This document shows, one piece after another, positions 1 through 64,000 of a stretch of DNA of 64,000 nucleotides. This DNA is from Pachysolen tannophilus NRRL Y-2460 (lineage: Eukaryota). Within the stretch, counting starts at the first letter, position 1; every line of letters begins with the position of its first letter. The stretch lies in assembly GCA_001661245.1 (NCBI GenBank), contig KV454017.1:186001-250000 (forward strand), read 5' to 3'. The position numbers and the translations under genes are program-made. The notes beneath the pieces are model-generated. The model was not told the DNA's origin. It searched no databases and worked only from the letters and a program-made list of their open reading frames with translations.

Positions 1-1184
1 AAAACTGTAGCAATGATTTCTAACATCTTGGAAATATTTAATTTTTCCAACTTGAAAATTCTGAACAATAACTCATCTGATTTAATTGTAACAATAGATT
101 GTCTTTGACTAGAATGCTGCGATTGCTGTTGTTGTTGCTGTTGTTGTTGTTGCTGCTGACTATGGTGTTGGTGATGACGGTGTTGCTGAGGGTGCCCATT
201 AGATTCATCTTTCCCGTTTTCACCATCATCGTTAAGTTCAAACAAGTTATTCATCTTGACATAGTTAAAAATCTTGATAAAACAATCGTGTTGTGTAGTT
301 TCTTGTGTACCCAACAATCCAATTAAATCCTCATTAACAACTTTTAATTTCGTTGGATACATTTTAGGCTGTATCACTATCTCTGCTTTAACTTCTTGAG
401 AAATATCACCTCCTTCAGTAACAGGTATCGAGGAACCAAATCTTTTAATATCTAACCCGTCAAATTGCTGTTGCAGTCTTTCCAACTCGGTTTTAGCGTG
501 TACCAAATCTTCATGCCATTCAACTATATTGTTATTGATAGGTCTTGGTGCCAACAAGTTATTATTATTCAATTGTTCTTGCAGCAGCAGTTGCAGCAGT
601 TGCTGCTGCAGTTGTTGCTGAAGTTGAAGTTGTTGCTCTTGCTCTTCAGGAGTTCTATCCGAGGGCTTCTTATCACCCGTGTATAATTCCACAGAAATAC
701 TAGACAAAAATGAACTAAATTTTTTCCTTGTAGGTAAATCCACTTCTTCATTATCATCTAAAAGCCTACCTTCAATTCTCAAAGTCCAAGAACCTTGTTG
801 TTGTTGTTGCTGTTGCAGCAGCAGCTGTTGTTGTTGCAATGGCTGAACATTATTTTGTAACTGCCAAGGCTGGTTCTCACTAATATTATAAATGAAAATT
901 CTCAAAATTTCAGGCTTATCCTCTTCTTCATCAACATCAGGCAACGTACCATTATTGATTCCATTCTGATACTCTTGCAAATCCAATAACTTCCGATTGA
1001 TAATCAAATCTAATTCTTTCTCTTTATATTGTAATTTCTTAAACATCTCAATCTGTTCTGGAAAAAGATTCTCTAAAGATTCAGAAATCATAACATCCGT
1101 AGGTTTAAACGAAACTGCTGGCGCAATCTGCGGTTGTGGCGGCGGAGGTGCCGAACCAACATTAGAAGTTTGCTGAACAGCCAT
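1..1184 (-). CDS. SNF12: SWI/SNF-RSC subunit with SWIB domain (Snf12/Rsc6 family); 3' end runs off the window
   Basis: Manual translation from ATG 1184 (MAVQQTSNVG...), in frame at all points checked: ILRIFIYNISENQPWQ, WTLRIEGRLLD, KKFSSF, TIKSDELLFRIF; poly-Q/A inserts. Absent from the ORF track because no stop lies in the window. Adjacent to THR4, as RSC6 is in S. cerevisiae. Confidence 0.85.
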   Translation of the reverse strand, partial: MAVQQTSNVGSAPPPPQPQIAPAVSFKPTDVMISESLENLFPEQIEMFKKLQYKEKELDLIINRKLLDLQEYQNGINNGTLPDVDEEEDKPEILRIFIYNISENQPWQLQNNVQPLQQQQLLLQQQQQQQGSWTLRIEGRLLDDNEEVDLPTRKKFSSFLSSISVELYTGDKKPSDRTPEEQEQQLQLQQQLQQQLLQLLLQEQLNNNNLLAPRPINNNIVEWHEDLVHAKTELERLQQQFDGLDIKRFGSSIPVTEGGDISQEVKAEIVIQPKMYPTKLKVVNEDLIGLLGTQETTQHDCFIKIFNYVKMNNLFELNDDGENGKDESNGHPQQHRHHQHHSQQQQQQQQQQQQSQHSSQRQSIVTIKSDELLFRIFKLEKLNISKMLEIIATV

Positions 1185-1397
1185 AACTCTTTATCTGATT
1201 ACCTTCTCTTAAAACCCCTTTACCCTTTTTACTTGGAAATAATTTTATAATTTATTTATTAACTTGGTCAACGAAAATAGCTTCTTACAATAAAATGTTT
1301 TTAAGAAAAAAAAAAAAAAATGGCCTATTTTATTGATATTTTACAAACGACTGAAATTTTTCAGTTTTGACTAAAACTATACAAGAAATCAGTTGAA

Positions 1398-2975
1398 TCA
1401 ATTGGAATTTTTGGCGAGTTTTTCGTTTTCTAATTCTTGGACGATGACGGTTTCAATTAGTTTCAAATCTGCGCTTTCTACTAATCTAACTTTTTTAGGT
1501 AATGAGTCGAATTTTTTGAATGCTTCCGGTAAGACTTTATTTTCAAAATCGTAACCTTCTAAACCAGTTAAAGATTTATTGACCACTTGAGAAAATTTAG
1601 CTGGATGAGCTGTTGACATGGAAATATATTTGAAGTTTCCTTGTGTCTTTTCGTCATCTTGGCTGATTTTCTTTAATGCAGCAGTGACACCAACTGAAGT
1701 ATGAGGGTCCATGATATAATTATTTTCTTGATAAATTTTTTTTATTGTAGAAACAGTTTCATCATTTGTAATTTTAAAAGAATCAAAAATTTCTCTTGTC
1801 TTTGCAAGAGTTTCTTTAGAAACACTAAAGACACCTTTTGGTGAAAGTAAGTTTAACATAAACTGTGCCAAGATCAGACCAGTTTTATTATCGTTATTTT
1901 CACCATCTGTTTGTTTAACCATATACCATAATAATCTTTCGAAATTTGAAGAAATTAAAATATCCATAGCTGGAGAATATGTTGCATTAACCTCTGATGA
2001 TTTATCATAATTCCCAGTTTTCAAGAATCTATCCAAGATATCATTTTCATTTGTAGCAATAATTAATTGTTCAATAGGTAATCCCATTTCTTTTGCATAA
2101 AAACCTGCCAATATATCACCAAAATTTCCTGAAGGAACAATAAATTTAATTTTAAAATTATTTCTTTCATCTTCAGGTAATTGATTTTTTAATTGAAAAT
2201 ATGAATGGAAATAATAAGTAATTTGAGCTAAAATTCTTGCCCAATTTATAGAATTTACAGCACCAATATGATATTTATCATTAAATTCTGTATCATTGAA
2301 AACTTTTTTAACAACATTTTGACAATCATCAAATGTTCCATTCACAGAAAGAGTATGGATATTAGCATCATTAACCGTTGTCATTTGTAATTCTTGAATT
2401 TGAGAAATTCTACCAGTTGGGTATAATATGAAAACTGAAACATTGGCTTTATTTCTTAACCCATAAATTGCTGCACTTCCAGTATCTCCAGATGTTGCTC
2501 CAACAACAGTTATAGAATTTTTTTCACTTTCATTAGAAATATTTTCATTTTTCCTATTTAAAAAAAATTCAAATAAATTACCAACAAATTGTAAAGCAAC
2601 ATCTTTAAAAGCATAAGTTGGTCCATGAAATAATTCTAAAAGGTATAAATTTTTAACACTATTTAATTTAACTAATGGAGTAATCTCATTTGTTCTAAAT
2701 GTTGAATATGAATCTTTAATCAATTTTTTTAAATCTTCATCTGAAATCTCTTTAACGGAAATATATAATCTCATAATATTAAAAGCCAACTCTTGAAATG
2801 AAAATTGATTCCAACTAGTTAAAAAATCACTTGGTAATTTCGGAATAACCGATGGAATAAATAATCCTCCATCTTTAGCTAACCCTGTAATAACAGCTTC
2901 TTCAAATGAAACTGCTTGGTCAACCTCCGAACGTGTAGAACGATACGACTGTGAAGCAGAAAAACTAGATGACAT
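1398..2975 (-). CDS. THR4: Threonine synthase
   Basis: YRSTR, GLAKDGGLF, ELFHGPTYAFKDVALQ (PLP lysine), GATSGDTGSAA, NSINWARI, PSGNFG, STAHPAKF. Confidence 0.97.
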   Translation of the reverse strand: MSSSFSASQSYRSTRSEVDQAVSFEEAVITGLAKDGGLFIPSVIPKLPSDFLTSWNQFSFQELAFNIMRLYISVKEISDEDLKKLIKDSYSTFRTNEITPLVKLNSVKNLYLLELFHGPTYAFKDVALQFVGNLFEFFLNRKNENISNESEKNSITVVGATSGDTGSAAIYGLRNKANVSVFILYPTGRISQIQELQMTTVNDANIHTLSVNGTFDDCQNVVKKVFNDTEFNDKYHIGAVNSINWARILAQITYYFHSYFQLKNQLPEDERNNFKIKFIVPSGNFGDILAGFYAKEMGLPIEQLIIATNENDILDRFLKTGNYDKSSEVNATYSPAMDILISSNFERLLWYMVKQTDGENNDNKTGLILAQFMLNLLSPKGVFSVSKETLAKTREIFDSFKITNDETVSTIKKIYQENNYIMDPHTSVGVTAALKKISQDDEKTQGNFKYISMSTAHPAKFSQVVNKSLTGLEGYDFENKVLPEAFKKFDSLPKKVRLVESADLKLIETVIVQELENEKLAKNSN

Positions 2976-3075
2976 TTTTTATTGCAATATTATTTATTTA
3001 TTTATACTGATTAACTAATATTAAATTATTCACTAATATTTTCAATTCCTACAATAATACCGATTTTTTGAATAA

Positions 3076-5238: not shown

Positions 5239-7977
5239 TTATTCCGATTCATCATCGGAGGAGCCAAAAGCATCTACATTCAATTTTTGAGTACCATTTG
5301 GACCAAACCAACCTCCATCATCTTCATCTTCATCTGCATCTTCTGCATCTTCTGCATCTTCTTCGTCTTCTTCTGCATCAACAATCATTGTGTTGTCCTC
5401 TGCATCTTCAAACACCTCGTATTCTTCCTCTGTATCTTCTTGTTCAACATTTGTCGATTTTATGTTATTGCTGAGTTTGAAATAGTCAATCAAATATGAG
5501 TTATTGTTACCACACTTGACAATTTCCTTCACTGTTCTATTCAAAAGCCTCTGGATGAGTCTTAAACTACTTATAAAGTCACGTTTTCTCGAGTTTATAT
5601 ACATTCCATGTTCATCTAGTAACAGCTTGATCCAAATAATGTTAAATTCTAAATGTGGGTTATTCAATGAAAGTTCAGTGACAAATTTTAAAAATCTTGG
5701 TAAAAAGACATGAGGGATTTGTGATACAATCAATTTTATATCAATAACAGGAATTGATTCATAAACTTTATGAATCAAGTAAACTTCATTTAATCTCAAT
5801 GACATTATTAACGCATTCAAATATTCTTTTTCTTGCAAGACTTGTAAAGTTGTTTCAGGTGTAATATCGACATCTAAATCAAAAGGATCAAAAATCAACT
5901 CGTCATCAACAGAGTAAATTAACAATCCTTCTGTAGAAGCTGCTGCAAACGCCAGAGCAGTTGGAGAAAAACTTATCGAAGTAACTCTGATTTGAGCTCT
6001 AGTTTTCCTTAAAGATGGATCTCCACGATTTGAACCTGGTAAAGATAAATCAATTCTATCTTCTAGATCTGAATTTTCACCATCTCTATCAATCAAATCT
6101 AGTGGACCTGCATCAGTTAAATTCTTAGAGTTTAAATATTCCAAAGTACCATTTATCAGCATGTTTAATGATACCGTAAACCTTTTCAACAAGACAGAGT
6201 TTGGTATATCATAAAGACAAATAGAATTATTATTACCAGCAGCCACTAAAGTTAACCCATCAAATGAATAATTTATCGTGGTAAAATATTTTGATCTAGC
6301 AGAGTTTTTAGCTACAAATCTATCTTCAATAAATCTTCCACTTAAAATATCCCTCCTACCATCGATATCACCAACTTGCTTAGCATCTTCAATGTTCCAA
6401 AACTGAAGATGTCCATCTAGAGTTGAAACAGCAACTTCTTTTGAATCTGGTCTCATAGCTAGACATAATACATCTGAATAGATATTAAAAGGTTCAACAT
6501 GTTGTGATCTACCAAAGATATTCCATACTCTAACTGTTTTATCCCATGATGCACTTGCTAAAGTTGAATTTTCAGTTCCAAAAGCCAAACATGAAATAGG
6601 TCCTTCATGACCTGCTAAAGAATCTAATAATTGGGAAGTTTGTACTGACCATACAAAAATTTCAAAACTGTCAAGACTTCCAGCACATACAACTTCCCCA
6701 CTAGGATCTACTGCTAAACAACTAAATTGTACTCTTTCTGTAGCTGTAAAAGTTCTAAAATTTCTATATCTTATTAAATCATAAGCTCTTACAGTACCAT
6801 CTAATGAAGCACTAAATAATACGTTCCCTCTCTTGGCAAATTGTACTGCTGTAACAGAAGAAGAATGTTCTTCAAATGTAGCAAGACAAAACCCAGAAAG
6901 GATATCCCATATTTTAATTTTACCATCATCAGAAGCGGTTACTATTCTTGAACCATCAGGTGAATATGCTAGACAATTCATCGAATCAAAATGTCCCTGT
7001 TGTTTCAAGATATAAGATTCGGATTGCCATTCATAAACCAATAATTGCCCCAACTTGCTTGAACCAAAAGCTAACCATTCCCCAGATTTATTGATCTCTA
7101 CAGTGTTTACTTCATTTTGTCCCATACTTAATTGTTGAATTAATGCAAAATCTGGTAATTGGTATATTCTAAATTCTCCGTTTGTGAATCCAACAACTAA
7201 TAAATCGGATTGTGGGTGGAAAGTAGCACATTTAAGTTTTGCCTCTGAAAAGAAGTAATTTTTCAGAGTTATACGCCAACTTGGCTTAGATGTTGTTTCA
7301 TCTTCTTTCCCCTCGGTATATTCCCATTTAAATAAAGCACCATCTTTACTTACTGTATAAATTATTTCTTGGTTTTTATCAAAAAATGCTTTTATAACAA
7401 CATCATGATGCCCACCAAAGGTCATTGTTGTTGCTTCCTTCTCTTTAGAATCAATGGAAAAAATCCTAGCAGTCATATCTTTTGATGTAGAAATGAAAAA
7501 TCTTGAATCCCTTGACCAAGTAATCGATATAACATCATTATAATGACCTGAATAGATCCTATGACGCACAAAAGGTTGAAATTGTCTATCCTCACTGAAA
7601 TCGGGAGTCTTCCAAACTTGAATAAACCTTCCACAACATATACTGAAAAATTTACCACAAGGTGAAAATTGTAAATCAAGTACTTTTTCTTTAAAATTAA
7701 AATGATGTAACACAATCTTTGAAATAAAATTCACCAATATAGCCCTCCCATCTTCATCAACCGACAAGAGCAACGTCCCCTGCTTGTTAAGAGCAATTCT
7801 AGAAACATTTTTCCTATGCTCAAAACTGAACGTAAAAGACTTATTATTTATTAAATCAAAGCATGATATTCTATTTCCTACTGGACTTAAAAGTTTAGTA
7901 CCATCATCAGTGAAAACAATATTACCTTGACGATAAACAGTACCCAACAAGTTCGAAAACTTAAAATCTGATTTCAT
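5239..7977 (-). CDS. PWP2: WD40 90S pre-ribosome/UTP-B subunit Pwp2
   Basis: MKSDFKFSNLLGTVYRQGN start, multiple WD40 repeats, Utp12-type C-terminus, acidic tail; ATG at 7977. Confidence 0.96.
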   Translation of the reverse strand: MKSDFKFSNLLGTVYRQGNIVFTDDGTKLLSPVGNRISCFDLINNKSFTFSFEHRKNVSRIALNKQGTLLLSVDEDGRAILVNFISKIVLHHFNFKEKVLDLQFSPCGKFFSICCGRFIQVWKTPDFSEDRQFQPFVRHRIYSGHYNDVISITWSRDSRFFISTSKDMTARIFSIDSKEKEATTMTFGGHHDVVIKAFFDKNQEIIYTVSKDGALFKWEYTEGKEDETTSKPSWRITLKNYFFSEAKLKCATFHPQSDLLVVGFTNGEFRIYQLPDFALIQQLSMGQNEVNTVEINKSGEWLAFGSSKLGQLLVYEWQSESYILKQQGHFDSMNCLAYSPDGSRIVTASDDGKIKIWDILSGFCLATFEEHSSSVTAVQFAKRGNVLFSASLDGTVRAYDLIRYRNFRTFTATERVQFSCLAVDPSGEVVCAGSLDSFEIFVWSVQTSQLLDSLAGHEGPISCLAFGTENSTLASASWDKTVRVWNIFGRSQHVEPFNIYSDVLCLAMRPDSKEVAVSTLDGHLQFWNIEDAKQVGDIDGRRDILSGRFIEDRFVAKNSARSKYFTTINYSFDGLTLVAAGNNNSICLYDIPNSVLLKRFTVSLNMLINGTLEYLNSKNLTDAGPLDLIDRDGENSDLEDRIDLSLPGSNRGDPSLRKTRAQIRVTSISFSPTALAFAAASTEGLLIYSVDDELIFDPFDLDVDITPETTLQVLQEKEYLNALIMSLRLNEVYLIHKVYESIPVIDIKLIVSQIPHVFLPRFLKFVTELSLNNPHLEFNIIWIKLLLDEHGMYINSRKRDFISSLRLIQRLLNRTVKEIVKCGNNNSYLIDYFKLSNNIKSTNVEQEDTEEEYEVFEDAEDNTMIVDAEEDEEDAEDAEDADEDEDDGGWFGPNGTQKLNVDAFGSSDDESE

Positions 7978-8273: not shown

Positions 8274-8819
8274 ATGAGTAAGAGTTCTAATGGCGGCTTT
8301 TCGAGCCGAGTACTGAATATGAAGGTAAGTATATAGGTATATATATAAGATGAAATTAATGTTTTAAATTTTATGGTACTAATTAATATGTTGTTTGTTT
8401 GTTTGTTTGTTTAGTTTATGAGAAAAGCAGAACAAGTTGAGATACAAAATAAAGAAGAAGAAACAGAGAGTAAATTAAAAGATTTAAGTCAATGGCTGTT
8501 ACCTAATATAGATTCTTTGAAGTTGAAGTTATTACGGAAAAGACCTCAGTTTAAACAAGTTGGGTTTTCAACATTAAATCAAGCATTGCAACAAGAAGAA
8601 GAAGAAGAAGAAGGGCCCGGAAAACAAAAAATTCCCCAAGAAAGTGGTCGGCGGCTCTTTGGAGGAAAAACCCCAGAAATTCCAGAAACTTTAGAAAACT
8701 CAGAACCATTAAAAGAAGAAATAAAACCAATTGTGAATAAGCAAAAGGAAGCTGTTAATAGTGGGAAAAGGAAATCTAATTCAAATGGTAAGGTTTCAAA
8801 AAAGAGGAAACAAAGGTAA
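8274..8819 (+). CDS. MPP6: Nuclear exosome cofactor Mpp6; 2 exons (8274-8324, 8415-8819), about 151 aa
   Basis: Spliced N-terminus MSKSSNGGFSSRVxNMK|FMRK matches the Mpp6 SSRVxNMKFM motif, plus a GRRLFG motif; intron 8325-8414 with GTAAGT, TACTAAT (8377-8383) and TTAG. Confidence 0.85.
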
Positions 8820-13006: not shown

Positions 13007-13091
13007 AAGTGACAGTCTGTCTGTCATCACACGAGAGAGAATTTTTTTCCTTCTATTAAAAGAAATAAAAAAAAAAAAAAANAAAAAAATT

Positions 13092-13163
13092 AAGCGCTGC
13101 TAGGTTTCGATCCTAGGACATCAGGGTTATGAGCCCTGCGCGCTTCCACTGCGCCACAGCGCT
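13092..13163 (-). tRNA. Initiator tRNA-Met (CAU)
   Basis: AGCGCTGTGGCGCAGTGGAAGCGCGCAGGGCTCATAACCCTGATGTCCTAGGATCGAAACCTAGCAGCGCTT; A1:U72, three G:C pairs in the anticodon stem, GATCG T-loop (A54), downstream T-run Pol III terminator. Confidence 0.97.
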
Positions 13164-13734
13164 TTTGCTGTGATATCTTTTTCAACTCTCGAACACTAAC
13201 AGGTGCTCCATACAAAATTTTTTTTTTTTTTTCCTTCTAAGAATAGCCACAAATTTAATTGCCAAAAAGAGCGAACAAATTTCATTATAATGTCTGAGCA
13301 ATGAATAGTACCGAAAATATCGGTATACTTCCAAGTCACTGAGAAGTAAGTGAATAAATAATAATCTATTTCTACCTGAGGCCACTAAGGGGACAATTTC
13401 TTCAGAATTTTTTTCCTTCTAGCCTTTCTTATTAAGAATTAGTAATCTTTAATTATAAAGGGGTTTCTAATAATTTGGATCTCGGTGTGGCATTCTGTAC
13501 CCATGTGTAAAGTAAACCCGTGCTGAATGACTAATTCTTCGTCTTTTTTTTCCCCTTTTTTTTCACTACTTAAGTAAACCAGATTTCTCATCAGCCATTT
13601 TTTAACGTTTTTGATATTAAAAATTCTTTTTTTTTTTTCTTTCTATTTCAGTTGTATTTTTGGAGTCTTTGCCACAATCTGATTTATCAATAAGATCAAT
13701 AGTTAAACCTTGCATTTTTCTTTTCACCTACACA

Positions 13735-14901
13735 ATGAACAATATGCAACAAAGCGTTGTTGTTAATATTGTGAATCATGAAAGCAGTTTTCGGAGACAT
13801 TTTATTAAAAATTTTCATTCGATATGGTTTGCCAGTGTTATGGGTACTGGTATAGCTTCGACTTTTTTGTATAGATGTCCATTTGGTGCTGAATGGTTAA
13901 AGGTATGCGGCTTAATTATGTTTGGTATCACAGTATGCATGTTCTTACTTTTCAGTACTATTTTCATTTTGAAAAATTTTTGTTTTTATAGAAATACAGC
14001 TTTCTTATTTGATGCGAAACAATCTGTATTTCTTGGTTGTTATCCCATGGGGTTGGTTACCATAATTAACATGATAACATTAATAGCCGAGGGTAGTTTT
14101 AATGAAAAGAAATGGTTTTATTTTATCTATATTCTTTGGGTTATAGATATGATTATGAGTTTAATGTGTTCTTGGGGAATTACATTTATATTGTTCACTA
14201 GGTCACATATTTCCGACTATAAAGAACATGGTTTTAATGCAACCTTACTATTACCATTGGTGACAATGACTGTATGTGCTGCAAGTGGTTCATTATTTTA
14301 CAGTATGATCCCAAATGAAGATTTTAAATTAGTTCAAATTATAATATGTTTCTTATTATGGGCAAATGCTATATGTTTATCTCTTCCTGTTATTGTAATT
14401 TATTTTCTGAAATTATATGTTACAAAAATTGTTCCAACTTCATTGATTTTCACTGGATTTATACCAATTGGAATAATGGGTCAAGGTTCTTATGGAATTT
14501 TATTAATGGGGAATAATTCTTCAAATTATATTATAAAAAATTATAATAAATACCCATCAAATTTTAATAATTTTTTAGAAACTGCACTTGCAACAGCTAA
14601 TTTTTTCAAATTTTCAGCACTTATAATTGCATTATTCTTATCTTCATTAGGATTCTTTTTAACTTTTTTAGCTTCTAGTTCAATTTTCCATGGTGAAAAA
14701 CCAAAATTTTTTAAAAAAGAATGGTGGGCAATGTGTTTCCCCATAGGTGCAATGGCAATACTGAGTTCTGAATTAGGAATATTGTTTGATTTTGTAACCT
14801 TCAAAGTGATTGGTTGCATTTATGGTGCTACATTGGTTGTACTCACTATAGTTTGTTTAATTGGAAGTTTTATTCATGAATTCCCATGGCATCGGAAATA
14901 A
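13735..14901 (+). CDS. SSU1: SLAC1/TDT-family sulfite/dicarboxylate efflux pump
   Basis: WFASVMGTG, FLGCYPMG, LLPLVTMTV, FIPIGIMGQ, WWAMCFPIG; about 10 hydrophobic segments; first ATG 13735. Confidence 0.8.
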   Translation: MNNMQQSVVVNIVNHESSFRRHFIKNFHSIWFASVMGTGIASTFLYRCPFGAEWLKVCGLIMFGITVCMFLLFSTIFILKNFCFYRNTAFLFDAKQSVFLGCYPMGLVTIINMITLIAEGSFNEKKWFYFIYILWVIDMIMSLMCSWGITFILFTRSHISDYKEHGFNATLLLPLVTMTVCAASGSLFYSMIPNEDFKLVQIIICFLLWANAICLSLPVIVIYFLKLYVTKIVPTSLIFTGFIPIGIMGQGSYGILLMGNNSSNYIIKNYNKYPSNFNNFLETALATANFFKFSALIIALFLSSLGFFLTFLASSSIFHGEKPKFFKKEWWAMCFPIGAMAILSSELGILFDFVTFKVIGCIYGATLVVLTIVCLIGSFIHEFPWHRK

Positions 14902-18220: not shown

Positions 18221-21200
18221 TTACAGCGTATTTTCTTGGTTTCCCAGTTCAAACATGATATTGATGAGATGTCTTATTGATTTAAAAGTGTCGAGTTCGA
18301 GATCCAGAGAGGCTTTCTTTGCCTCTTGTTCTGTAGATTCGTAGGTGGTGGTGGTGGTGGTGTTATTCTTGTTGTTGTTATTGTTATTGTTGATTTTCTT
18401 GGCGGTATCAATGATTTTGTCGAGAATTCTGTCTATCTTGAGGACGTAGTTATCATCTATGCAATTTTTCTTTGGGGAAAATAGTTTTCTAACTGTTGTC
18501 TTTGGATCTGGAGTTGAGTTATTTGAGTAGTGGATACTTGAATCCAAGTTTGTGTTTGAGCGATTCACATTTTTGAAGCTATTAGAGAGATTCCAGTTAA
18601 AAGACTCAGAGTAATTATTATTATTATTATTATGATTCAGCAATTGATCGTTTGTTGGGTTGCTCGATACAAGTCCACCATTACTACTGCTGCCGCTACT
18701 TGCAGTGGTGCCTCTTTTCAGCCTGCCCAAGGCTGCTGATAATGCCGAGTGTTGTGATGACGAGGAGGGAGTTGTAGTGCCAGCAGCAGAAGCAGAAGCA
18801 GTAGCAATACCAGAAGCAGTATTAGTGCTAGTACTAGTACCGGTACCGGTTGTTTTTATTGTAAATTCTTTAATTTCCCTAGCGGCAAGGGAAACAAATA
18901 TTGTCTTGGTTATAGTTGTGGGTTTACTTGATTTTAATAGTTGATGGTTTTGTAAATCATTTCTCATAGCTTGAAGAACAACTTGATCCAAATTAGAAGA
19001 CATTGGGCAAGCTTGTAACAGGAATTCAGGTCTAAATTCATCGACATAGCCACATAAGGGTAATAATGAAAGGTTTCTTAAATTATTTTTTTTTTAAAAT
19101 TCCTTTCACGTTTATCATTAAAATTTTTTTTCCCAAGTTTGCATTCTTCATTAATGAAAATATCTTCTAATGAAACATCAACTAAATTATTATTTTCACC
19201 ATTTTCAACAATATAAATTTCTGGATCACTTTTCATAATCAGTTTACATTGATCCCTTACCATCTGATATGTCTTATTATCACAATCACTGTTTAATGTT
19301 GTTGCAGTTCTATTAAGGTATGATAATGTGTTTGCACTATATTTTGAATTAATATTATTGGAAACACTACTAAAATCATATTGTGAAGTTGTTTTCGTTA
19401 ATCTTTGATTATTATTATAAAAATTAGAAAAATTAGAAAAATTGTTCCCACCATGATTTGTATAAGGAGAATTTGATAAAGAAGATGGAATCCAAGAATA
19501 ATCTTCATATTCAGTAGCTGGAGAAGGAGTTCTAACACTTGATAAAGAAAGTCCTGGCTTGGAATTATTATTGTTAACATTATTTGTTATATGATGATTT
19601 GTATTAAATGAATCGGTCATATAATTATTAGTATTATTATTCCCATTATTATTACTTGTCCACCATTTTTCAAGAACAGAAAGACCATGATTTTTCCATG
19701 ATGATGCATTATAAGATGATGAAAATGATGATGATAAACATTGTAATGATGCACAACTAGAAGATGGTTTTATCACAGTTAAACTTGCATGAGGCGTTGA
19801 AGTAGTGGCTAAAGACACAGATGTTGTCTTTGGAATTTCCCATCCTTTTGAATACGAAGAAACTGATGGAGTATTAGTTGAAGAAGAATCATCATTATCT
19901 TCTTCTGCATTTACTTTTTCAATTTCATCTTGTAAATTTAAATTTTTACCTTCATTTCTATTATTAGTTTTTATATTATTGTTTCCACCAATTTCTTTAT
20001 GATTTTTATTTTCATTAGACATAGTAGTTAATGGTGAAGAACTAGATTCAGAATTTTCTTCTAATTCATAAGAACGTAAGATTTCTTCTTCATATGCATG
20101 ATTTTTAGTAACTAATACATCATCAGGTAATATTCCACTTATTATAAAAATCAATTTTTGAACAACCATTGGATTACCAGTCATAATAACTACCCTTGTT
20201 ATTTCCTTTTTTTTATCACTAGGTTTATTAAACAATAAATTATATCTTATTGGAATTAAAATGGAAAATAAACTTGCTAAAAATTTTAAATTAGAAGATC
20301 CAAAATTTTTACCATCTTTAAGTTGTAACCAAGTTGCAACATAATGACACCAATTAAGTATTACAGTATTTGATCTTTTCATTCCAACAAGTAATCTTGG
20401 TATATTTGAAATTGAATGAGTTAATTTGATTACTCCAACTAAAAATTGATGTAATTCATGATCATTTTGTAAAATGAGTGATGGGAAACAAAGTGATCTT
20501 TTATTACTATCACAAGATTGAATATTGGAACAAAATTTTGGATTTGTTGAACATAACAGTTTTAATTTCCGTACAGTTGAAGTTTCAATTGATGTTATAA
20601 AATTAATATATTCTTCCCAATTATCTGTTACTACTGTTTCTATAAGATCTGGATTTATAGGTAATACAATTCCAATACCAAATCTTGTACAATTTTTACC
20701 ACTATTTGATGGATTTCCAATTTTTAAAGTAGGATTTGGTAACCATTTTTCAACATTTTCTAAATCTAAATCACGATTATTGTTTTCAATTACCATATCA
20801 TTAGAAAATGTTTGATTTAATGAAAAAAGACGAGTTATTAATATTGAATTAGTAGTATTTGGTAAAGATGGTAATACTTGTAATTTCGATGAAGTTGAAA
20901 CTTCATTTATTGGTACACCACAACCAAAGATATAATCTGATAATTCAGCTAAATTATGGTATCTTGAATTATCCATTTTTAAATTTTTAAAATTTATATT
21001 TTGTTGTTGTTGTTGATTTAAAATTGTACTTCCTGTAAATTGTATTGCCGAATCAAATAACGGTTGTTTCGACCTTATATTCCCATCTTGATATACCACT
21101 ATTCTACAACTATTACTGTCTAGTGGCAATGCCGGTAAATGATTTGGTGTTCCATAAAGTAAAGTTCTAGTATATGCATCATCATAATTTTGATGTTCGT

Positions 21201-25676: not shown

Positions 25677-27256
25677 ATGTAAGTATTTTCAATTTTAATT
25701 TTTTTTTTTTTTTTTTTTTGCTTTTCTACTTACTATATATAAGTTTGATCATTTACTAACTTTTATAAAAAAAATTTTTAAAAATATTCAGGGATTTAAG
25801 AGTTGGAAGAAAATATCGTATTGGAAGAAAAATAGGTTCAGGATCATTTGGGGATATATATTTAGGAACTAATATTATTTCTGGAGAAGAAGTTGCAATC
25901 AAATTGGAAAATGTTAGAGCAAAACATCCTCAATTGGAATATGAAGCAAGAGTTTATAAGGCCTTGTGTGGAGGTGTTGGTATTCCATTTGTAAGATGGT
26001 ATGGAACTGAATGTGATTATAATGCAATGGTAATTGATTTATTGGGCCCCTCATTAGAAGATTTATTCAACTATTGTAATCGGAAATTTTCTTATAAAAC
26101 AGTTTTATTATTAGCTGATCAATTATTATGTCGTATTGAATTTATTCATGCAAGATGTTTTATTCATAGAGATATAAAACCTGATAATTTTCTTATGGGA
26201 ATTGGGAAAAGAGGATCACAAGTTAATGTAATTGATTTTGGTTTAGCTAAAAAATATAGAGATCCAAGAACTCATTTGCATATTCCATATAGAGAAAATA
26301 AAAATTTAACAGGTACTCTGAGATATGCTTCAATAAATACTCATTTAGGTATTGAACAATCAAGAAGAGATGATTTAGAAAGTTTAGGTTATGTTTTAAT
26401 TTATTTTTGTCGTGGTTCTTTACCTTGGCAAGGTTTAAAAGCTGCTACAAAGAGACAAAAATATGATCGTATATTGGAAAAAAAAATGGCAACTCCAGCA
26501 GAAGTTTTAGCAAGAGGTTTACCAACAGAATTTGTTCATTATTTAAATTATGTTAGATCTTTAACTTTTGAAGATAGACCAGATTATGTTTATCTTAGAA
26601 GATTATTTAGAGATTTATTCATAAGAGAAGGATATTTGTATGATTATGTATTTGACTGGACAGTGTTTAAGTATAAACAAGTTCAACAACTGCAACAAGT
26701 GCAGCAACAACAACAACTGCAACAACTGCAACAACTGCTGCAGCAGCAACAACAACAACAACATCATCAACAACAACTGCAAATCCAAGATTCTGGTGAA
26801 AACAAAGAAAGCAATGAAGATGAGGAATTAAAAGATGAAAATGGAGGCGGCGGTAGCGGTGGCCAGCTGCAGCAAATAGCACCACCACCACCACAGCAAC
26901 AACAACAACAACAACAAGCACAACAGCAACCGCAACAGCAACTGCAACTGCAATCTCCACCACAACCTCAAGCACAACCACAAGCACAACTGCAATCGCA
27001 ACAATCAAGACAAGTCCAGCCTTTATTACAGCAGATTGGACAACAGCCCGTTCAACAGGCGCCAAATCCTGCACAACAGTCATTCCCAGTATATAGAGTG
27101 CAGCCTTTATCGTCACAACAACCACCACCGGTAACTCAGGAATCTCCCCAGATCACACAAGCGTCTCCTCAGCAACTGCTTCCACATCAACATCATCAAC
27201 AACAACAACAACAACAAAATGCATTTCAATCAGGTGTGAATCAGCCGTGGCTTTGA
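25677..27256 (+). CDS. HRR25: Casein kinase I Hrr25; coding exon 1 is only 'AT' (25677-25678), exon 2 is 25792-27256; about 488 aa
   Basis: Spliced start [46 protein letters not shown]; intron 25679-25791 with GTAAGT, TACTAAC (25754-25760) and CAG; Q/P-rich tail. Confidence 0.95.
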
Positions 27257-29166: not shown

Positions 29167-30342
29167 TTATAACTTGAAATTATTGTATTTTTTATTAACA
29201 ACCATGTCAATTAAGTTGAATGCAACAGCATCTTTCATTGGTAGCACAATACCTTCTGGATGTTCATAAGTCTCATCATTAATCATTTTTGATAATTCTT
29301 CTACTTCAAACCATCTAGCGTCCAGCAATTCTTTATCATTACCCAAATTTATTATCTCATCTTCCCCATTAAAATCTACTACTGCTATACATCCAATCAT
29401 TAAATTTACAGGAAATGGCCATGGTTGAGACATAATAATATGAATTCTTTGAGCTTTTACACCTGTCTCTTCCCAAACTTCTCTCAGAACTGCTGCTTCT
29501 ATAGTCTCTGATGGCTCCATAAAACCAGCAAGACATGAATACATCTTTGTTGAAACCCTACGTTGATTCAAACCAAGCAAAACTTTGTCACCTTTAACGT
29601 TTGTAACTGCAGCAATAACTACAGGATCAGTTCTTGGGAATGAAACATTTACAACTGTGGACAGTTTAACTGGACACTTGTATTTTTGAGTTCTCTCATC
29701 AATATTTTCAGAATTACAAAGTAATCTTGTACCTGCATCAATTGGAATCACATTTGAACCACATCCGGGACAAAAATTGTTTTTATCTAACCATTCCAAA
29801 TACATTTTACCGTAGGAAATTAATGAAGCTTCAAGGTTCGATAATTTAAAATAATTTGTAATCAGAGATAATTGATCAAAATCATTCGAAATCATTTTTA
29901 AATCTTCCTTGTTCTTCAAATTAATGGCAAAATATGGAATACCTCCATAACCGTTATATGAAAAAAATTTTGATTCTGAATCTAAATCATTATTAAGAGA
30001 ATCTTTTGAAATCGATTTGAAGTTTATTAATTGATCAAGCCCTAAAAATACAACATTGATTGTATCTTTTACTTTTAAGGACTTCAATTCATTGTTAACC
30101 GACCAATTCTTTAATGTCTTTTGGAAATAATCGTTCAATTTTTCGAATTCCAATATTAATAATTTCTTTGATGATTTGCTAATCAATGGAACTATATGAT
30201 TATTCTCAGAAATATAAAATATAAATTTACTATATGGATGCTTAATTGAATTTTTAATATATTCAGAATCAGATCTTAAGAATGAAACCCTATTAACCGT
30301 CTCTGAACCAAAGAAAATATCACTATAATGGAAAGTTGACAT
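29167..30342 (-). CDS. NPY1: NADH diphosphatase (Nudix)
   Basis: FCPGCG zinc ribbon, FPRTDP, Nudix box AGFMEPSETIEAAVLREVWEETGV, SQPWPFP; ends FKL. Confidence 0.93.
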   Translation of the reverse strand: MSTFHYSDIFFGSETVNRVSFLRSDSEYIKNSIKHPYSKFIFYISENNHIVPLISKSSKKLLILEFEKLNDYFQKTLKNWSVNNELKSLKVKDTINVVFLGLDQLINFKSISKDSLNNDLDSESKFFSYNGYGGIPYFAINLKNKEDLKMISNDFDQLSLITNYFKLSNLEASLISYGKMYLEWLDKNNFCPGCGSNVIPIDAGTRLLCNSENIDERTQKYKCPVKLSTVVNVSFPRTDPVVIAAVTNVKGDKVLLGLNQRRVSTKMYSCLAGFMEPSETIEAAVLREVWEETGVKAQRIHIIMSQPWPFPVNLMIGCIAVVDFNGEDEIINLGNDKELLDARWFEVEELSKMINDETYEHPEGIVLPMKDAVAFNLIDMVVNKKYNNFKL

Positions 30343-33949: not shown

Positions 33950-35365
33950 TTATAACATCACAATACCTACATTACTTCTATTTTCAATATCCCATTCACG
34001 AGTATCTTCTTTCATACCACCATTTATCTTTTTTGATCTGTAATTGAATAAATAAAAATTTAAAAATCCATCACCTGGACCAAATTTTAAAGGTTCTAAA
34101 AATAAATTATTATCTTGTGAAGTTAATGCATTAAATACATCAATTTTTAAATTTTTTGATATTATTAAAGCATCATTAATTAAAGATTTTAATCTTTTTG
34201 ATAATAATTTTGTCAGTTCAGGATCAAATCTTGGTTTATCAAGACAACAATCTGAAGCATAATAAAATAAATATGCAATTCCTAATTCTTTATGTAATGG
34301 ATTATTTAAAACTGTAAATGGTAATAAATAAAATGAAAAAAAATCAGTAATTTTTTTAGTTATTGGATTTTCAACAACATAAGTTTGAATAACTTTTTCA
34401 TCACCAATTAACCAATGTTTAAGTTCTTCAATTGAAAAATCTTGAACTAATTCAAAATTTTTATTATAATCCAGAAATAATTTTGAAACTTGTTCAATAT
34501 CTTGAAATTTAATTTTTCTTAATCCTTCAATAATTGTATTTGATGGTAAAATATATTTTGAAATCATTTGAGTTTTAGTAATATTTTCTGGTAAATGAGA
34601 AAATCCAACATCATATAATTTTGACCAATTAATCGGTCTATGATTATAACGACATACTGAAATTGGTGAAGGTAATACAACTCCAGCTGTATACATTGCT
34701 TGCCAAATATTTTCTTTATTAACTCTTCTTGTTATTTCTTTTATTAAAACAGGTGCTAATCTTTTTGTTCTTAATTTTTTATGAATACATAAAAAATTAA
34801 TTTCAACAGATTTAATTGATTTACCTCTAATTTTTAAATTTGTTGGAATGGCACTAATAAATGCAACTAATTTCCCAGTTGTACGAACTCTAACACCAAC
34901 ATTCCATTGTCTTAACCATCCAGGAGGTTTTAAAGCCCATTGGAAAAATTCTGGAGGATAATTAAATCTAAAAGTTGCATCTTGATGTTCAACATAATTT
35001 TCATGAAGTAATGTAAATAAATCATCAATCTCTTCTTTACTATCCAAATCAACTTCACACCATTCAAAATCTTTCAATAATGGTAATGGTTCATTTGGAA
35101 TATCATCAGGAGTTTTATCACTATCAATAGCTCCTTCCTTAATAATTTTTTCATCAAATTTAGGAACTGGTTGAGTCTTCCAAAACTTATAATCTTCCAT
35201 TTCCTTCTTCTGAACCTCAGTTAACTCCTGAGACATTGATAAAAGTTTTAATAAATCTTCAATATTCTTACTTTTCTTATCCGAATTGGAACCTGAATTG
35301 GAACTGGAACCTGATCCAGATTTAGAACCATTTTTAGAACCACCAGATTTATCAGCAGACGACAT
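33950..35365 (-). CDS. NMT1: Glycylpeptide N-myristoyltransferase
   Basis: [43 protein letters not shown]-terminal VGIVML; ATG at 35365. Confidence 0.97.
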
Positions 35366-35741: not shown

Positions 35742-37471
35742 ATGATCTCTGCTACTAGTTGGGTTCCGAGAGGATATGCGTCTGAGTTTCCTGAAAAATA
35801 TGAGTTGGACGATGAGGAGATGCTGAGAATCACGGCCATGGCCAATTTAGAAATTTCTGATGCTAGGAAAGGTTTAAAAGAAGCTGAAGAAGCTGAAGAA
35901 GTTGAGGGAACGACTGAAGAAAGTTCAAATAGAGATGCATTGAAGGATGAGATTGAGTTTGATAATGATTTGAAAGAATACGATTTGGAGAATTATGATA
36001 ATGGGCCTGTAGATTCGGAAGGTACACCTTTAACAATGTTTCCTGGTTTATCCAACTCTGATGCAAGGTATCATGAGAATGAAGGTGAAGATGGGAATGG
36101 AGACCCTTATATTTCACTTCCTACAGAGGATGACTTGCAACAGGAGAAGGAAGAGTTACAAGTTTATCCCACTGATAATATGGTTTTGGCTACAAGAACT
36201 GAGGATGATGTTTCTTATTTGGATGTTTATATCTATGATGATGGTGCAGGTGCTCCTGAAGGCTCAAATGAAGAAGAAGGTGATAAATTAGATAGAGATG
36301 CCGCTAAAGGGTTGGTCAGAGAGAGCAATTTATATGTACATCACGATTTGATGTTACCTGCTTTCCCCTTGTGTGTTGAATGGATTAATTTTAAACCTAA
36401 TGGTGAAAATAATGATTCTAATATTGGGAATTTTGCAGCAATTGGTACTTTTGATCCAACTATTGAAATTTGGAATTTAGATTCAATTGATAAACTGTTT
36501 CCAGATGTAATATTGGGAGAAAATAATAATAATAATAATTTTCAATTAAAGAAAAATTCTAAAAAAAATAAAAAAATAAAAATATTCATGTTAAAACTCA
36601 TCATACAGATGCAATCTTATCATTATCACATAATAAGGCTCATAGATCTGTATTAGCTTCAACTTCTGCAGATTCTACAGTTAAAATATGGGATTTATCT
36701 ACAGCTTCTGCTGTAAGATCAATGAATCAAATACATCAGGGTAAACAAGTTTCATCATCACAATGGTATAAAGATGATGGTTCAATATTACTTACAGGTG
36801 GATATGATGGTCATGTGGCAATATCCGATGTAAGAATATCATCAGATGAAAATATGACAAAAAGATGGCGTGTGGGTAATGGTACTGAAGATGTTGAAAG
36901 TGTAAAATGGGGATCTTTAGATGGTTTATTCTATGCAGGTACTGATAAGGGTAATGTATATTGTTTTGATGCTAAAATGACATCAAAACCAGTTTGGACT
37001 TTACATGCCCATGATGCAGGTATTTCAAGTTTGGAAATAAATAATTTTATTCCAGGTCTCTTGGTAACTTGTGCAATGGGTGAAAAACTTATTAAATTAT
37101 GGAAAGTTAATCAACAAAATATTCCTTCTATGGTACTAAGTCGTGATTTTGGTTGTGGTAATGTATTTTCCTCTTGTTTTGCACCAGATATTGAGGTCTG
37201 TGGAAATTTAACAATAGGAGGAGTTACTGGAGGTTTGAAAATGTGGGATTGTTTCTCAAATAGAGGTGTTAGAGCTGCTTTTAAAGATGAATTGAAAATT
37301 TTACAAAAAAAAGCTAGAGATTTTGCAAAAGAAAATGGTAGAAGCTCAAGAATAGCAAGAAAATACATAAATGATCAAACTACTGAAACAATTATGGTTC
37401 CTGAAACTGGTGGTTTAGAAGAAGATGAGGAAGATTTAGATCTGGAAGAACTGTGGGAAAATGAAGATTAG
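35742..37471 (+). CDS. PWP1: WD40 ribosome-biogenesis factor Pwp1; one apparent -1 frameshift at A7 36570-36576
   Basis: MISATSWVPRG, LYVHHDLMLPAFPLCVEW, GTFDPTIEIWNLD; the shifted frame gives HHTDAILSLSHN..RSVLASTSAD and joins ORF 36722-37471; divergent from NMT1 as in S. cerevisiae. Confidence 0.9.
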
Positions 37472-37866: not shown

Positions 37867-39720
37867 ATGAAAACAGATTATTATGAATTACTTGGAGTGG
37901 AAACAAAATGTGGTGAAACTGAGTTAAAAAAAGCATATAGAAGAAAAGCGTTACAATTACATCCAGATAAAAATCCTGATAACGTTGAAGAAGCTACAAG
38001 GCAGTTTAATTTGGTGAGAGCTGCTTATGAGGTTTTATCTGATCCTCAAGAAAGAGCTTGGTATGATTCACATAAGAATAGTATATTAAGAGAAGATAAT
38101 GATTATGCAGATGAAGAAGGTTCTTCAACTTCTTATGAAGTTGTTGGTACTAGTACCGATGAATTATTACGTTATTTTGATCCTTCAATGTATTCAAGAA
38201 TTGATGATTCGATTCAAGGTTTTTATAAAGTTGCACTGATGTTATTTGCAAAATTAGCAAGTGAAGAAGTTTTTTCTGGTAAGCAACAAGAATTGGATGA
38301 TTTTTATAAATATAAAGATGATAGTCCTTCTGCTAATGTTGTTGATAGTTCAGAATTATTATTTCCAAGATTTGGTGACTCTAGATCAGATTATGCCACT
38401 GAAGTGCGAGTATTTTATCAAAAATGGTCATCTTTTCAATCTATTAAAACTTTTAGTTGGGTAGATGAATACAGATATTCTAGAACACATGATCGTAGGA
38501 CAAGACGTTTAGTTGATAAAGAGAATAAAAAACTGAGAGATAATGCAAGAAGAGAATATAATGAAACTGTTAGGAGTTACGTAGCGTTTATTAAGAAAAG
38601 AGATCCAAGAGTTAAAAGTGGTGCAGCTGCTTTTGAAAAGGCAAAACGTAAAAAAGAACAAGAAGAAAAAAGAAAACAAGCTCAAAGAGATAGAGAAGCT
38701 AATTTAGCAAAAAGAAATGAATATCAACAACAAAATTGGCAAACAATTGATCTGGGCGATTTTGCAGAGATAGAAGAACAACTAGATAAATTACATGAAG
38801 AAGATTTATACCTGAATAAAGATGAAAAAGAACAAGATGAAGAAAATATATACGAATGTATTATTTGTAATAAAGATTTTAAAAGCAAAAGACAATTCAA
38901 AGAACATGAAAAATCTAAAAAACATCTCAAGTTATTGAGAAGGTTGAAATGGGAGATGAGAAAGGAAGGAATAGAATTGGGATTCGATACTTCATTGGAT
39001 GAAAGCGACATGGAAGATGAATTTGAAACTGCAAGTAGTGGTGATGAATTTCAAGCAAGCGAAAATGAAACTGAAACTGAGAGTGAAAATGAAAATGAAG
39101 TTGAAAATAATGAAAAGAAACTGGAAAAAGACAATTATGAAACAGAAAATTCTACAAAAAAATTAAATCTTGAAGATGATCTTGACAGTGAAATAGAAAT
39201 AGACGATCTGATTGATAGCGATTATTCTGGAATGGGAAGTTTTGTCAAGAAAGAGAAAGAAAAAAAACAGCAAAGACTGCCATCAGATGATTCGGATCAG
39301 GATCAGGATCTGACTCAAAAGAATCTGAATCGTGATAAAGAAGCTGAGAACGAACTTGAAGTTTTAGCTCGCCTGATAGAAAAAGGTGTCTCTATTAACG
39401 AGTTGCATCAACTAGACGATGATAGTGACAATTCTTGGGATATGTCTAAAAATAAAAATAAAAAATCTAAAAAGGACAAGAAAAAAAAAGTGATATCTTC
39501 TTCTTCTCCTTTTTCTTCTGGTAAAAATAATAACGTTCCAGTACCAAAGACCTCACAAGAACTGGTATCGGCACTGAAACTACAAGATAAGAAAAATTTA
39601 AGCTGTGCTGCTTGTAATGAAGTTTTCCCTTCAAGAAATAAGTTATTTCAGCACGTCAATTCAACTGGACATGCTGCTCCTGTTCCAATCAACAAAAAAG
39701 GCAAAAATAAGAAAAGATAA
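37867..39720 (+). CDS. JJJ1: J-domain co-chaperone with C2H2 zinc fingers (Jjj1/DNAJC21)
   Basis: [56 protein letters not shown]. Confidence 0.93.
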
Positions 39721-49705: not shown

Positions 49706-51346
49706 CTATTTTTGTTGATTTTGCAGTTGGTTTTGAGGAGAATGGGTTTGTGATGTAGAAGCAACGGGAGCTGATTGGTTGAAGTTATAGTTGGCATAAG
49801 GTTGTTGAGGTTGAGTTGGATAGTAGTAATATGGTTGTTGAGGAACTTGCTGATAATATCCTGCATAGGGCTGTTGCTGTTGTTGTTGTTGTTGTTGTTG
49901 CAGCAGCAGCAGCTGTTGCAGCTGTTGCAGCTGTTGGCCGCCAGGTGCCGCCTGTTGTTGAGGGGTTGAAGTTCTCTCGTACTCCTGGGATTCCGCTTTG
50001 ATATTGTTTAATGAGTTTATAGATGAATTCGGTGTGTTTCCCAACTTGATGTCAGAAACATTTGAATTGATTAATGAATTTTGGTAGTACAAATTGTAAG
50101 CAGCAGCATTATTTACAGATGAAGGAATACCTGCGTTAACCGAGTTAGCAGCGGTACCTGTAGCTCCAGTAGCAGGCTGAGGATTGTTACCGGTAACACC
50201 ACCACCTGGTTGAGAAGCCAGTATTGATGATGAATTTTGATTCTGACCAGCCAACCCTGTTGTGGTTGGTGTGCCCTGTTGAATTACTCTTTTGATATCT
50301 TTAACAAAAAGTGGATATAATAAATCAACAATTCCTTCTCTTTGTGCCATGGCCAATGCTCTTTCAAATGGAATCCAAACACCTTTCAAATGCATAGAAC
50401 CAATTTTTACAACTTTACGCACTTTTTCGGATTTTAATATACCATCTCTTCTTCCACGAGTCATACGAGCAACATTTAATAATTTTGTACCATTAATCAT
50501 ATTATTATCTGCTCTTCTTACAACAGATATACCATTTGCATCAACTTGATAACATAAAGTTTTTTCATCTTCCCACATTGTTGTTGTAATTCTTGGTCTT
50601 AATCCAGGAGGTTGAATTTGACCAGCAGTAGTATTCATTATTGAAGGATATTGAGCTGATGAAGTACCAGTTTGAGTAGATCCTCCAACATTTGTTTGAT
50701 ACATTGGTGCATATGCAGGAATATAACCTCCACGGTAAGCATAACTCGAATAATCAGGTTGTTGTCCTCCCGCCTGACCTTGTTGTGGTGGAACTTGGCT
50801 ATTCTGTTGATTCATCAAATAATAAGAGTAAGGATTTTGATAATTTTGAGCTGAAGAACTATTGTTAGCTGTATTATTATTATTATTACTGTTATTATTA
50901 TTGTTATTATTATTATTATCATTGGCGGCGGCCGCACTCCCAGATGTTGTGTTACCCGCTTGTGCCGCGGCGGCGGCATTCGCGCTAGTGCCAGCAATTT
51001 GATTATTTTGACCTGCAGCACCCATCTGTTGAACCGATTGGAAATATTGCTGATATTGATCAGGATAACCCAAATACGGCCTGGCCCCCGCCTGAGTATT
51101 GGAAGTAGACATACCATAACCTAAAGGTGTTTGATACTGTGGATACGGTAACATGCCACCTGGAACTTGTTGTTGATATTGCTGACCGGCATTTGCCTGT
51201 GTGCTTGAAGCACCAGCGTTATTAGTATTACTAGAACTCGTCAAACTCGAAGACTGCTGTTGATTTATGTGATTGGATTGTTGAGGTGTTGACTGTTGAT
51301 TATTTGTAGGTGAAATTGTTGGCAGTTGTGATTGATCGATTGACAT
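49706..51346 (-). CDS. EFG1: APSES transcription factor (Efg1/Sok2/Phd1/StuA family)
   Basis: [81 protein letters not shown]-rich flanks; about 4 kb upstream intergenic region. Confidence 0.9.
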
Positions 51347-54846: not shown

Positions 54847-54896
<50 letters not shown>

Positions 54897-60879: not shown

Positions 60880-61057
60880 GTAGTTTTGACCTAAGACTTA
60901 ATTATGTATTTAGAACAAACTTAGAATCAAAGGCTCAAGCTTATCTCTAATAAATAAATACGAAAATTACCCAGGCAATATATGTGGATCAAATAATAAT
61001 TATTTTTTCTTTTTTTTTTTTTTTTATGTAGTAATAATAAAACAACATGGGATGGAT

Positions 61058-62549: not shown

Positions 62550-62913
62550 TTTTTTTTCTCCCAAAAACTTGTCAGTTAAAACCCAATTATTCCTATTTTT
62601 TTAACAATTCAAAAGTCAAACTAGAACATCAAGTACCAAACGATGTCCTATCCTATTCAATATATATATATATATGTATCGGCTAAGTTATCCCAATTAT
62701 TATCCGCCCAACTATATAGAAGAAAGATGTCATTGCATATTTTTGAAAGGTGTTTAGGCGGAATATACCGCCCTTATCTACCGGGTTGCAGTAAAGGGAA
62801 AACGGCTTGTAACTTCTACGAATACTTCATCATCATCAAATATATATATATGTTTATATAAAGGTGTTTTATATACAGGTAGAGATCTATATTGAAGGCA
62901 GAAAATTATTGTT

Positions 62914-63765
62914 TTATTCTTCGTTTAAACCTTTGACACATTTCCACAACATATCGTATTCTTTTTGGTTTGATCTACCACAAGTTAACCATCTAATTTT
63001 ACAATCTTTATCAATAACATAAATGAAACAAGTATAAACATTTTTCATCATTAATTCATCTTTAACTTCACTTGTTAGATCAGATCTATGTCCAATTAAA
63101 TAACTATGTTTTCTTTTTTCAGGAATAGTTGTTTTCAAATTTCTAACAGCTAAATTAACAAAAAGATGTTTAAGATTATTTTCTGAAAGATTCAATTCAA
63201 CAATTTGAGTATTTGGATATAATTCATTCAATTTTATTAATCCAGTAGAGCTTAAAAATGAATCATTTGAATTAGAAATTTGGAAAAATCCTCTATTTCT
63301 TATTTCACCTTCTAATGATGAAAAAACTCTTAAAATTGTGGTTTTACCTTTAAATAAATTTGTAGTATGAACCATTTCATTATTTAAATTCTTAGCAATA
63401 ACATTAGGAAAATATAATGATTTATCAGCTTTAAAATATGATACTGGAGGTAAAAAAATTTTCCCCTGTGTCTTTGTATAATTTTGCATATCATAAAACC
63501 CACCAACTGCAATTTCTCTTTCTAATTGAGCTTGTCTTTTCTCTCTTTTCTCAGCATCAAAAGTATCCTTAATAGATTGCCAAAGAGATTGTGTCTCTGG
63601 TTGTGAATTTTTCGAAGCTAATGGTTGTTGTTTTGAACCTACTGGCTTCACTATAGAAACAACTTTAAATGGAGGAGGTGTAGTATTTTTAATTGTCTTG
63701 GATAACTTACCCAAAATTTGTACTCTACTACTAGAATGAAAACTCCTAATAAATATCTTAACCAT
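62914..63765 (-). CDS. ATP10: Mitochondrial F1Fo ATPase assembly factor Atp10
   Basis: Presequence-like N-terminus, GKIFLPPVSYFKADKSLYFP, YVIDKDCKIRWLTCG. Confidence 0.9.
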   Translation of the reverse strand: MVKIFIRSFHSSSRVQILGKLSKTIKNTTPPPFKVVSIVKPVGSKQQPLASKNSQPETQSLWQSIKDTFDAEKREKRQAQLEREIAVGGFYDMQNYTKTQGKIFLPPVSYFKADKSLYFPNVIAKNLNNEMVHTTNLFKGKTTILRVFSSLEGEIRNRGFFQISNSNDSFLSSTGLIKLNELYPNTQIVELNLSENNLKHLFVNLAVRNLKTTIPEKRKHSYLIGHRSDLTSEVKDELMMKNVYTCFIYVIDKDCKIRWLTCGRSNQKEYDMLWKCVKGLNEE

Positions 63766-64000
63766 TTCTCTAATTCAAAACAATAATCTATTCAAAACTA
63801 TTCTTATCCATATATTTTATCAACAATATCAATATTAACTAAAGTTGTGAAATTTTTTTACTTTTCAACATCTTTCCAGTTCTCTGCAAAAACCATCCAG
63901 TTCTCAGCGGAACAACTTCCAATGAATTTACCTTTACTTTTACCACATTTTTGGGCGGAAGTCCAAGGGGGAAAAAAAAATTCCTCCGGCAAAATTGGGC

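Follow-up and report, generated by a model that had tools for sequence, protein, structure and literature searches.

The stretch of DNA analysed here, called the window throughout, is a 64-kb segment (positions 1..64000) of a nuclear chromosome of the yeast Pachysolen tannophilus, and our subject is the amino acid that its genes specify with the codon CTG (CUG). By composition count the window is AT-rich, with a G+C fraction of about 0.25–0.32, and Pfam identified in it an ordinary budding-yeast set of genes: THR4, a CTR86-like gene, PWP2, YIH1, a sugar transporter, SSU1, SET2, LST4, HRR25, a GDPD gene, NPY1, NMT1, PWP1 (which has an intron), JJJ1, CHZ1, SPT16, an APSES transcription factor, MNN2-like and MNN4-like glycosyltransferases, an amine oxidase and ATP10. 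The 28 segments of open reading frame (ORF) that we examined hold 97 in-frame CTG codons among 12,841 codons (0.76%); an alternative count of 98 arose from reading PWP1 through into its intron, and 97 is the correct figure. We are confident, to a degree that falls little short of certainty, that these codons are read as alanine, as in NCBI translation table 26. That table is the Pachysolen tannophilus nuclear code, and translation with our tool under code 26 does render CTG as A. The conclusion holds mainly because of the identity of the organism and not because of hand-picked sites.

An earlier reading of the window made from its letters alone (the sequence-only reading) had placed this genome in the clade of yeasts in which CUG means alanine, and this assignment was borne out, since proteins encoded in the window are identical to records of P. 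tannophilus NRRL Y-2460. The best match to JJJ1 is PACTADRAFT_45467 of that strain (record P0001), which equals the window ORF save for 16 spliced-out residues and has A at each of the 11 CTG codons that can be aligned. Similarly, the database proteins corresponding to NPY1 (P0393) and to the MNN2-like gene (P0243) show zero mismatches at codons other than CTG and have A at 4/4 and 6/6 CTG codons, respectively, which brings the three records together to 21 alanines at 21 aligned CTG codons. The table-26 translations of THR4, NMT1 and PWP2, with seven CTG codons between them, are exact NCBI/UniRef entries, whereas an exact look-up found neither the table-1 nor the table-12 versions of THR4 and NMT1 among those entries. 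Public annotation already translates CTG as alanine; this, like the identity of the organism, was observed directly. Two rival explanations are touched by the look-up, namely that CTG stands for serine, as in Candida (table 12) or in Ascoidea and Saccharomycopsis, and that CTG keeps its standard meaning of leucine, the alanine matches of the sequence-only reading being chance picks. The absence of the table-12 proteins from public databases that do hold the table-26 versions argues against serine, and the absence of the standard-code proteins from public records argues against leucine. The full ORF translation of YIH1 (8862-9704, reverse strand), unlike those of its neighbours, had no exact entry under tables 26, 1 or 12, and the public gene model probably differs from ours in its start or by an intron. 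As to JJJ1, the NCBI model excises 48 in-frame bases (gt...ag, 39329-39376, forward strand) as an intron, at the cost of 16 residues and one CTG; judged from the DNA, this intron is probably an artefact of the gene model, because it is without yeast-type splice signals and the ORF runs through it continuously.

The reading of CUG as alanine in P. tannophilus is already known from tRNA analysis and proteomics published in 2016, and our results add nothing new for biology in this respect. The sequence-only reading was right that the phenomenon is not new; moreover, this very species is the one in which it was discovered. One of the discovery papers is reportedly that of Riley and colleagues, also from 2016. 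The other, in the text available to us, describes a single tRNA(CAG) in NRRL Y-2460 that groups with alanine tRNAs, carries G3:U70 and A73 and is without the long variable arm of leucine and serine tRNAs, and reports 907 CUG positions fully supported by fragment ions in liquid chromatography–tandem mass spectrometry, 97.2% of which were alanine (Muhlhausen et al., 2016; PMC4937558). For the tRNA, its charging and the residue actually present in protein we thus draw on that publication, or infer, rather than on the window itself. The organism being P. tannophilus, the proteomic figure speaks against serine, as does the statement in the same text that Pachysolen CUG residues do not lie at conserved serine positions, and the mass spectra, having shown alanine, already refute leucine (PMC4937558). 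A further rival is that CTG is decoded ambiguously, mostly as alanine but in a smaller yet meaningful share of cases as another residue, in the manner of CUG in Candida or Ascoidea. It can call upon the 2.8% of fully supported CUG positions that were not purely alanine (PMC4937558), and upon the finding, described below, that the alignment columns holding CTG resemble no single ordinary residue class. However, the available text reports a similar rate of deviation at the unambiguous codon AUG, finds deviations at CUG no commoner than there and concludes that CUG is unambiguous (PMC4937558), and CTG codons that arose recently, in this lineage and at variable sites, account for the unusual profile of the columns. 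We therefore regard ambiguous decoding as very improbable.

All eight CTG codons singled out in the sequence-only reading, in HRR25, PWP1, JJJ1, PWP2, SSU1, NPY1, LST4 and MPP6, are in frame at the coordinates that it gave. Alanine in homologs at the cited codons held for HRR25, PWP1 and NPY1, was left ambiguous by JJJ1 and fell at PWP2. In HRR25, which encodes casein kinase 1, the codon lies in the motif TGT[CTG]RYAS (26318..26320, forward strand), where all five printed alignments with casein kinase 1 chains of the Protein Data Bank (PDB), from rice CKI and CK1 delta entries, have A; among the CTG codons, only this one was found where homologs are invariant, and an invariant alanine at this site is a point against serine. 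The codon in DK[CTG]FPD of PWP1 (36495..36497, forward strand) faces A in 10zy_R, the sole PDB chain of Pwp1 found. In NPY1, the motif EL[CTG]DARW (NPY1-340; 29323..29325, reverse strand) had been set aside as ambiguous and is in fact supportive, since 67 of the 119 homologs have A there (27 have E, 10 have S and 7 have L), as does the database protein P0393. NMT1 has a CTG in FDPE[CTG]TK (NMT1-384; 34214..34216, reverse strand), at which the two best PDB chains (1iic and 2p6e) have A and the remaining three a gap or another residue, and one at NMT1-298, at which the PDB chains show K, K, Y, E and Q. The column of NKK[CTG]RD in JJJ1 (JJJ1-223; 38533..38535, forward strand), where the NCBI record P0001 has A, contains A in 48/119 homologs but L in 41/119, and is thus ambiguous; together with JJJ1-296, at which L is the plurality residue (28/119), it supplies what homologs offer in favour of leucine, to which MPP6 may add a site, as the sequence-only reading gives its homologs as usually having L or M at the CTG. 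On these alignments, the invariant HRR25 site and the majority site NPY1-340 appear to be the only ones that point specifically to alanine, and none points specifically to serine or to leucine. The remaining cited codons lie in MAI[CTG]SSELG of SSU1 (14761..14763, forward strand), in EF[CTG]LQAC of the C-terminal ORF of LST4 (19019..19021, reverse strand) and in SSRV[CTG]NMK of MPP6 exon 1 (8313..8315, forward strand); a PDB search found no relative for the C-terminal part of LST4, and likewise none for that of SSU1.

Several results weigh against the alanine reading, beginning with individual codons. The PWP2 motif NM[CTG]ING (PWP2-607; 6157..6159, reverse strand) had been matched to a yeast NMALNG, yet just 3 of 119 homologs have A in that column. 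Its commonest residues are T (30), Q (29) and S (26), and NMTLNG is the sequence in 11 of the 14 rows from Saccharomycetaceae. In NPY1, the CTG of EAAV[CTG]REVWEETG (NPY1-286; 29485..29487, reverse strand), which immediately precedes the RE residues of the Nudix box, occupies a column with K in 90 and R in 21 of 119 homologs (111/119 K or R), and NPY1-227 one with N in 68/119. The three CTG sites of YIH1 correspond to S, E and N in S. cerevisiae Yih1 (PDB), the first of these being a point for serine. In addition, the window is devoid of a gene for tRNA(CAG): ARAGORN and Rfam found one tRNA gene only, a tRNA-Met (CAT) on the reverse strand (13091..13164; RF00005, the sole Rfam match in the window), and the gene for the CUG-decoding tRNA is therefore located outside the window. 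As regards NPY1-286, the nearest relative of this protein (P0394) has L at this position. That residue is probably a CTG as well, and an alanine before the Nudix-box RE seems to be a change of this clade within a conserved motif.

The broader test proposed with the sequence-only reading, a tabulation of homolog residues at CTG columns, was carried out on an unselected sample consisting of every CTG codon of JJJ1, PWP2 and NPY1 (119 homologs each) and of the MNN2-like gene (149 cluster representatives). The window's own database entries (P0001, P0123, P0393 and P0243) were excluded, and CTG was read as X in the MAFFT alignments to keep these unbiased. Of the 26 CTG codons, 10 were dropped because their columns had more than 30% gaps and 16 were kept; JJJ1, with 7 of its 12 CTG codons in such columns, is poorly suited to column analysis. 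The tabulation rejected leucine and failed to separate alanine from serine. Homolog residues pooled over the 16 columns gave no dominance of alanine, with A 249, S 283 and L 133 of 1976, and the plurality residue was A, S or K at three columns each, T at two, and L, I, D, E or N at one each. A summed log score akin to that of Codetta was best for S, at -41.9, as against -48.6 for A, -53.4 for K and -55.3 for L; by a hand estimate, not a computation, adding the HRR25 site would leave A and S no more than roughly level. The same scoring method recovered the standard meaning of all 46 other codons with at least 8 sites, and random sets of 16 true alanine, serine or leucine sites were classed correctly in 500/500 draws. 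Because sets of 15–16 true alanine sites, variable ones included, were classed as alanine in all but at most one of 500 draws, the CTG columns are unlike ordinary alanine columns. On conservation alone, then, the alignments reject leucine and leave alanine and serine about level.

Serine draws its support from this tally, in which it has the best score over the 16 columns, a pooled count slightly above that of alanine and the plurality at PWP2-675 and JJJ1-124. Its share of the CTG columns is 15% compared to 49% at ordinary serine columns, and the corresponding figures for alanine are 13% and 51%. Among the CTG columns conserved to at least 50%, one is alanine (NPY1-340, 56%) and none is serine or leucine, the others being K (NPY1-286) and N (NPY1-227). 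When scoring was limited to variability-matched columns, no residue stood out (S -41.0, A -41.7, T -42.1). Adding to these results the invariant alanine of HRR25, the public translations and the published proteome, we judge serine to be exceedingly improbable. The same grade applies to leucine, which makes up 7% of the residues at the 16 CTG columns compared to 60% at 199 ordinary columns of the other five leucine codons and which was called in 500/500 draws from 16-site sets of true leucine codons; that CTG is not leucine-like is a direct observation. Equally direct is the finding that CTG sits in unusually variable columns, their median entropy being 2.68 bits compared to 1.17 bits elsewhere (Mann-Whitney p = 5e-5).

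This variability is what a history of loss and recapture of the codon predicts. According to the available text of Muhlhausen et al. (PMC4937558), the ancestral tRNA-Leu(CAG) would have been lost while CUG codons largely vanished, whereupon one tRNA-Ala gene would have gained the anticodon CAG and captured the free codon. As alanyl-tRNA synthetase recognises its tRNA by G3:U70 and A73 in the acceptor stem rather than by the anticodon, such a tRNA would still be charged with alanine and would insert alanine at CUG (PMC4937558). The CTG codons of today would then have arisen anew, mostly at weakly constrained positions, and alanine and serine would come out level in the unselected tally owing to the variable, lineage-specific positions that the recaptured codon occupies. 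The discoverers' own conservation analysis found, in the text available, that Pachysolen CUG was not leucine and did not lie at conserved serine positions, which prompted their work on the tRNA and the proteome (PMC4937558); the weak separation of alanine from serine in the window matches that outcome.

Codon usage in the window ORFs provided a further view of CTG. It occurs 97 times, compared to 34 for CTA and 29 for CTC, and is thus about three times commoner than either, whereas most other pairs of codons ending in G and A are strongly biased towards A (GCG/GCA 27/217, CCG/CCA 28/259, ACG/ACA 29/275, TCG/TCA 66/376). Since CTG is in excess over CTA and CTC despite this bias elsewhere, its usage does not follow that of the other CTN codons, which argues against leucine, as does the presence of CTG runs inside poly-glutamine tracts. 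A glutamine codon adjoins 28 of the 97 CTG codons (29%), compared to 8% of GCN alanine codons and 7% each of leucine and serine codons, although these 28 come mostly from three genes and are not independent. The first of the three is HRR25, whose glutamine-rich tail is interspersed with CTG (CAA CTG CAA CAA CTG ..., 26675..26782, forward strand) and farther on alternates CAA-GCA-CAA with CAA-CTG-CAA units (26861..26992, forward strand), GCA and CTG being interchangeable in these Q-A-Q units. The second, the APSES (KilA-N) gene, has a glutamine tract with CTG runs (CAG CTG CTG CTG CTG CAA, 49871..49960, reverse strand), and the third, a SNF12-like gene, has two such tracts (573..848, reverse strand). 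Adjacency to glutamine was considered as a discriminator between alanine, serine and leucine and was rejected for that use, as it shows only that CTG has a distribution of its own. We tentatively suggest, while leaning somewhat towards doubt, that the recaptured CTG-alanine has become concentrated in poly-glutamine tracts of P. tannophilus and that the code change has shaped its Q/A-rich regions. If this held genome-wide, the single-base change CAG to CTG in a glutamine tract would have been redirected from glutamine-to-leucine to glutamine-to-alanine and hence be tolerable, and the shaping of Q/A-rich low-complexity regions would be a consequence of codon reassignment for the evolution of low-complexity protein sequence. 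A narrow literature search (Pachysolen, CUG, polyglutamine) found no published account of such a consequence.

The nearest non-self relatives of the window's proteins lent support to the picture of an alanine clade. They are P0124 (75% identical to PWP2, 5239-7977), P0002 (62% to JJJ1, 37867-39720) and P0394 (56% to NPY1, 29167-30342), all of which are known from read-assembly sources only and have presumably been translated with the standard code. At several columns in which hydrophobic residues are all but absent from other yeasts, these relatives have L. For P0124 the columns are PWP2-348 (others A 90) and PWP2-377 (others A 38, G 29), and for P0002 the column is JJJ1-23 (others A 109), whereas P0394 has its odd L at two sites that are CTG in Pachysolen, NPY1-227 and NPY1-286. 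Odd L residues of P0002 and P0394 also occur at columns that alanine does not dominate (JJJ1-83, -137, -304 and -506; NPY1-60 and -94). As a control, P0126, P0127 and P0130, likewise translated with the standard code, show odd L at serine columns (S 109 and 115), the pattern expected of species in which CUG means serine, and we infer them to be such; P0130 is an exception in having two odd L residues at non-serine columns as well. The odd leucines of P0124, P0002 and P0394 may in this way be CTG codons, and the three proteins look like those of a second species with CUG as alanine that has been read with the standard code. That the odd leucines of the window's nearest relatives fall on alanine columns and those of the putative CUG-serine species on serine columns is a further point against serine in the window.

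In comparison with known systems, the window shows no difference from the P. tannophilus code of table 26, organism and code being the same and the window's proteins coinciding with public records that translate CTG as alanine; what it adds is local detail only, namely how many CTG codons there are (97), how variable their columns are and how they cluster in glutamine tracts. The alanine clade consists of Pachysolen, Nakazawaea and Peterozyma, as listed in the available text of Krassowski et al. (2018; PMC5951914). The first CUG-serine clade (table 12), that of Candida and Debaryomyces, is akin to it in that the same codon was reassigned in a neighbouring budding-yeast lineage and is rare and re-acquired, but there a tRNA-Ser(CAG) inserts serine, whereas the public translations of the window's proteins are not those of table 12 and the invariant HRR25 site needs alanine. 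Ascoidea and Saccharomycopsis, with the second CUG-serine or stochastic decoding, represent a third case of altered CUG decoding among budding yeasts; from the portions of the literature available to us, they differ in using serine, or a mixture of serine and leucine with competing tRNAs, and the window gives no hint of two decoders.

In practical terms, the sequence-only reading was correct that an ORF track in the standard code is wrong at every CTG: translations under the standard or bacterial table carry leucine for alanine at all 97 places counted above, and table 26 is the one to use in translating the P. tannophilus genome. With respect to method, hand-picked alanine matches overstate the signal from conservation, and an unselected tally of CTG codons in 64 kb rejects leucine and cannot tell alanine from serine.

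Some minor features of the sequence and of the gene models accompany these results. Runs of N occupy 45528-46234 (707 bases) and 54351-54846 (496 bases), both intergenic and in low-complexity surroundings, and single N bases stand at 13082 and 40749. The runs may reflect gaps in the assembly or masking, and ORFs listed across them are artefacts. In HRR25 (25769-26027, forward strand), the kinase ORF extends upstream as far as 25769 with no ATG, and a tiny first exon must therefore lie further upstream; an exon search found no further CTG in the N-lobe and thus no extra conserved site. MPP6 (8274-8413, forward strand) has a first exon of 17 codons and then an intron that begins with gtaagt and ends in tttag, and PWP1 (36560-36722, forward strand) is split by an intron. 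LST4 (18221-21360, reverse strand) is represented by two ORFs that overlap around 19078-19090.

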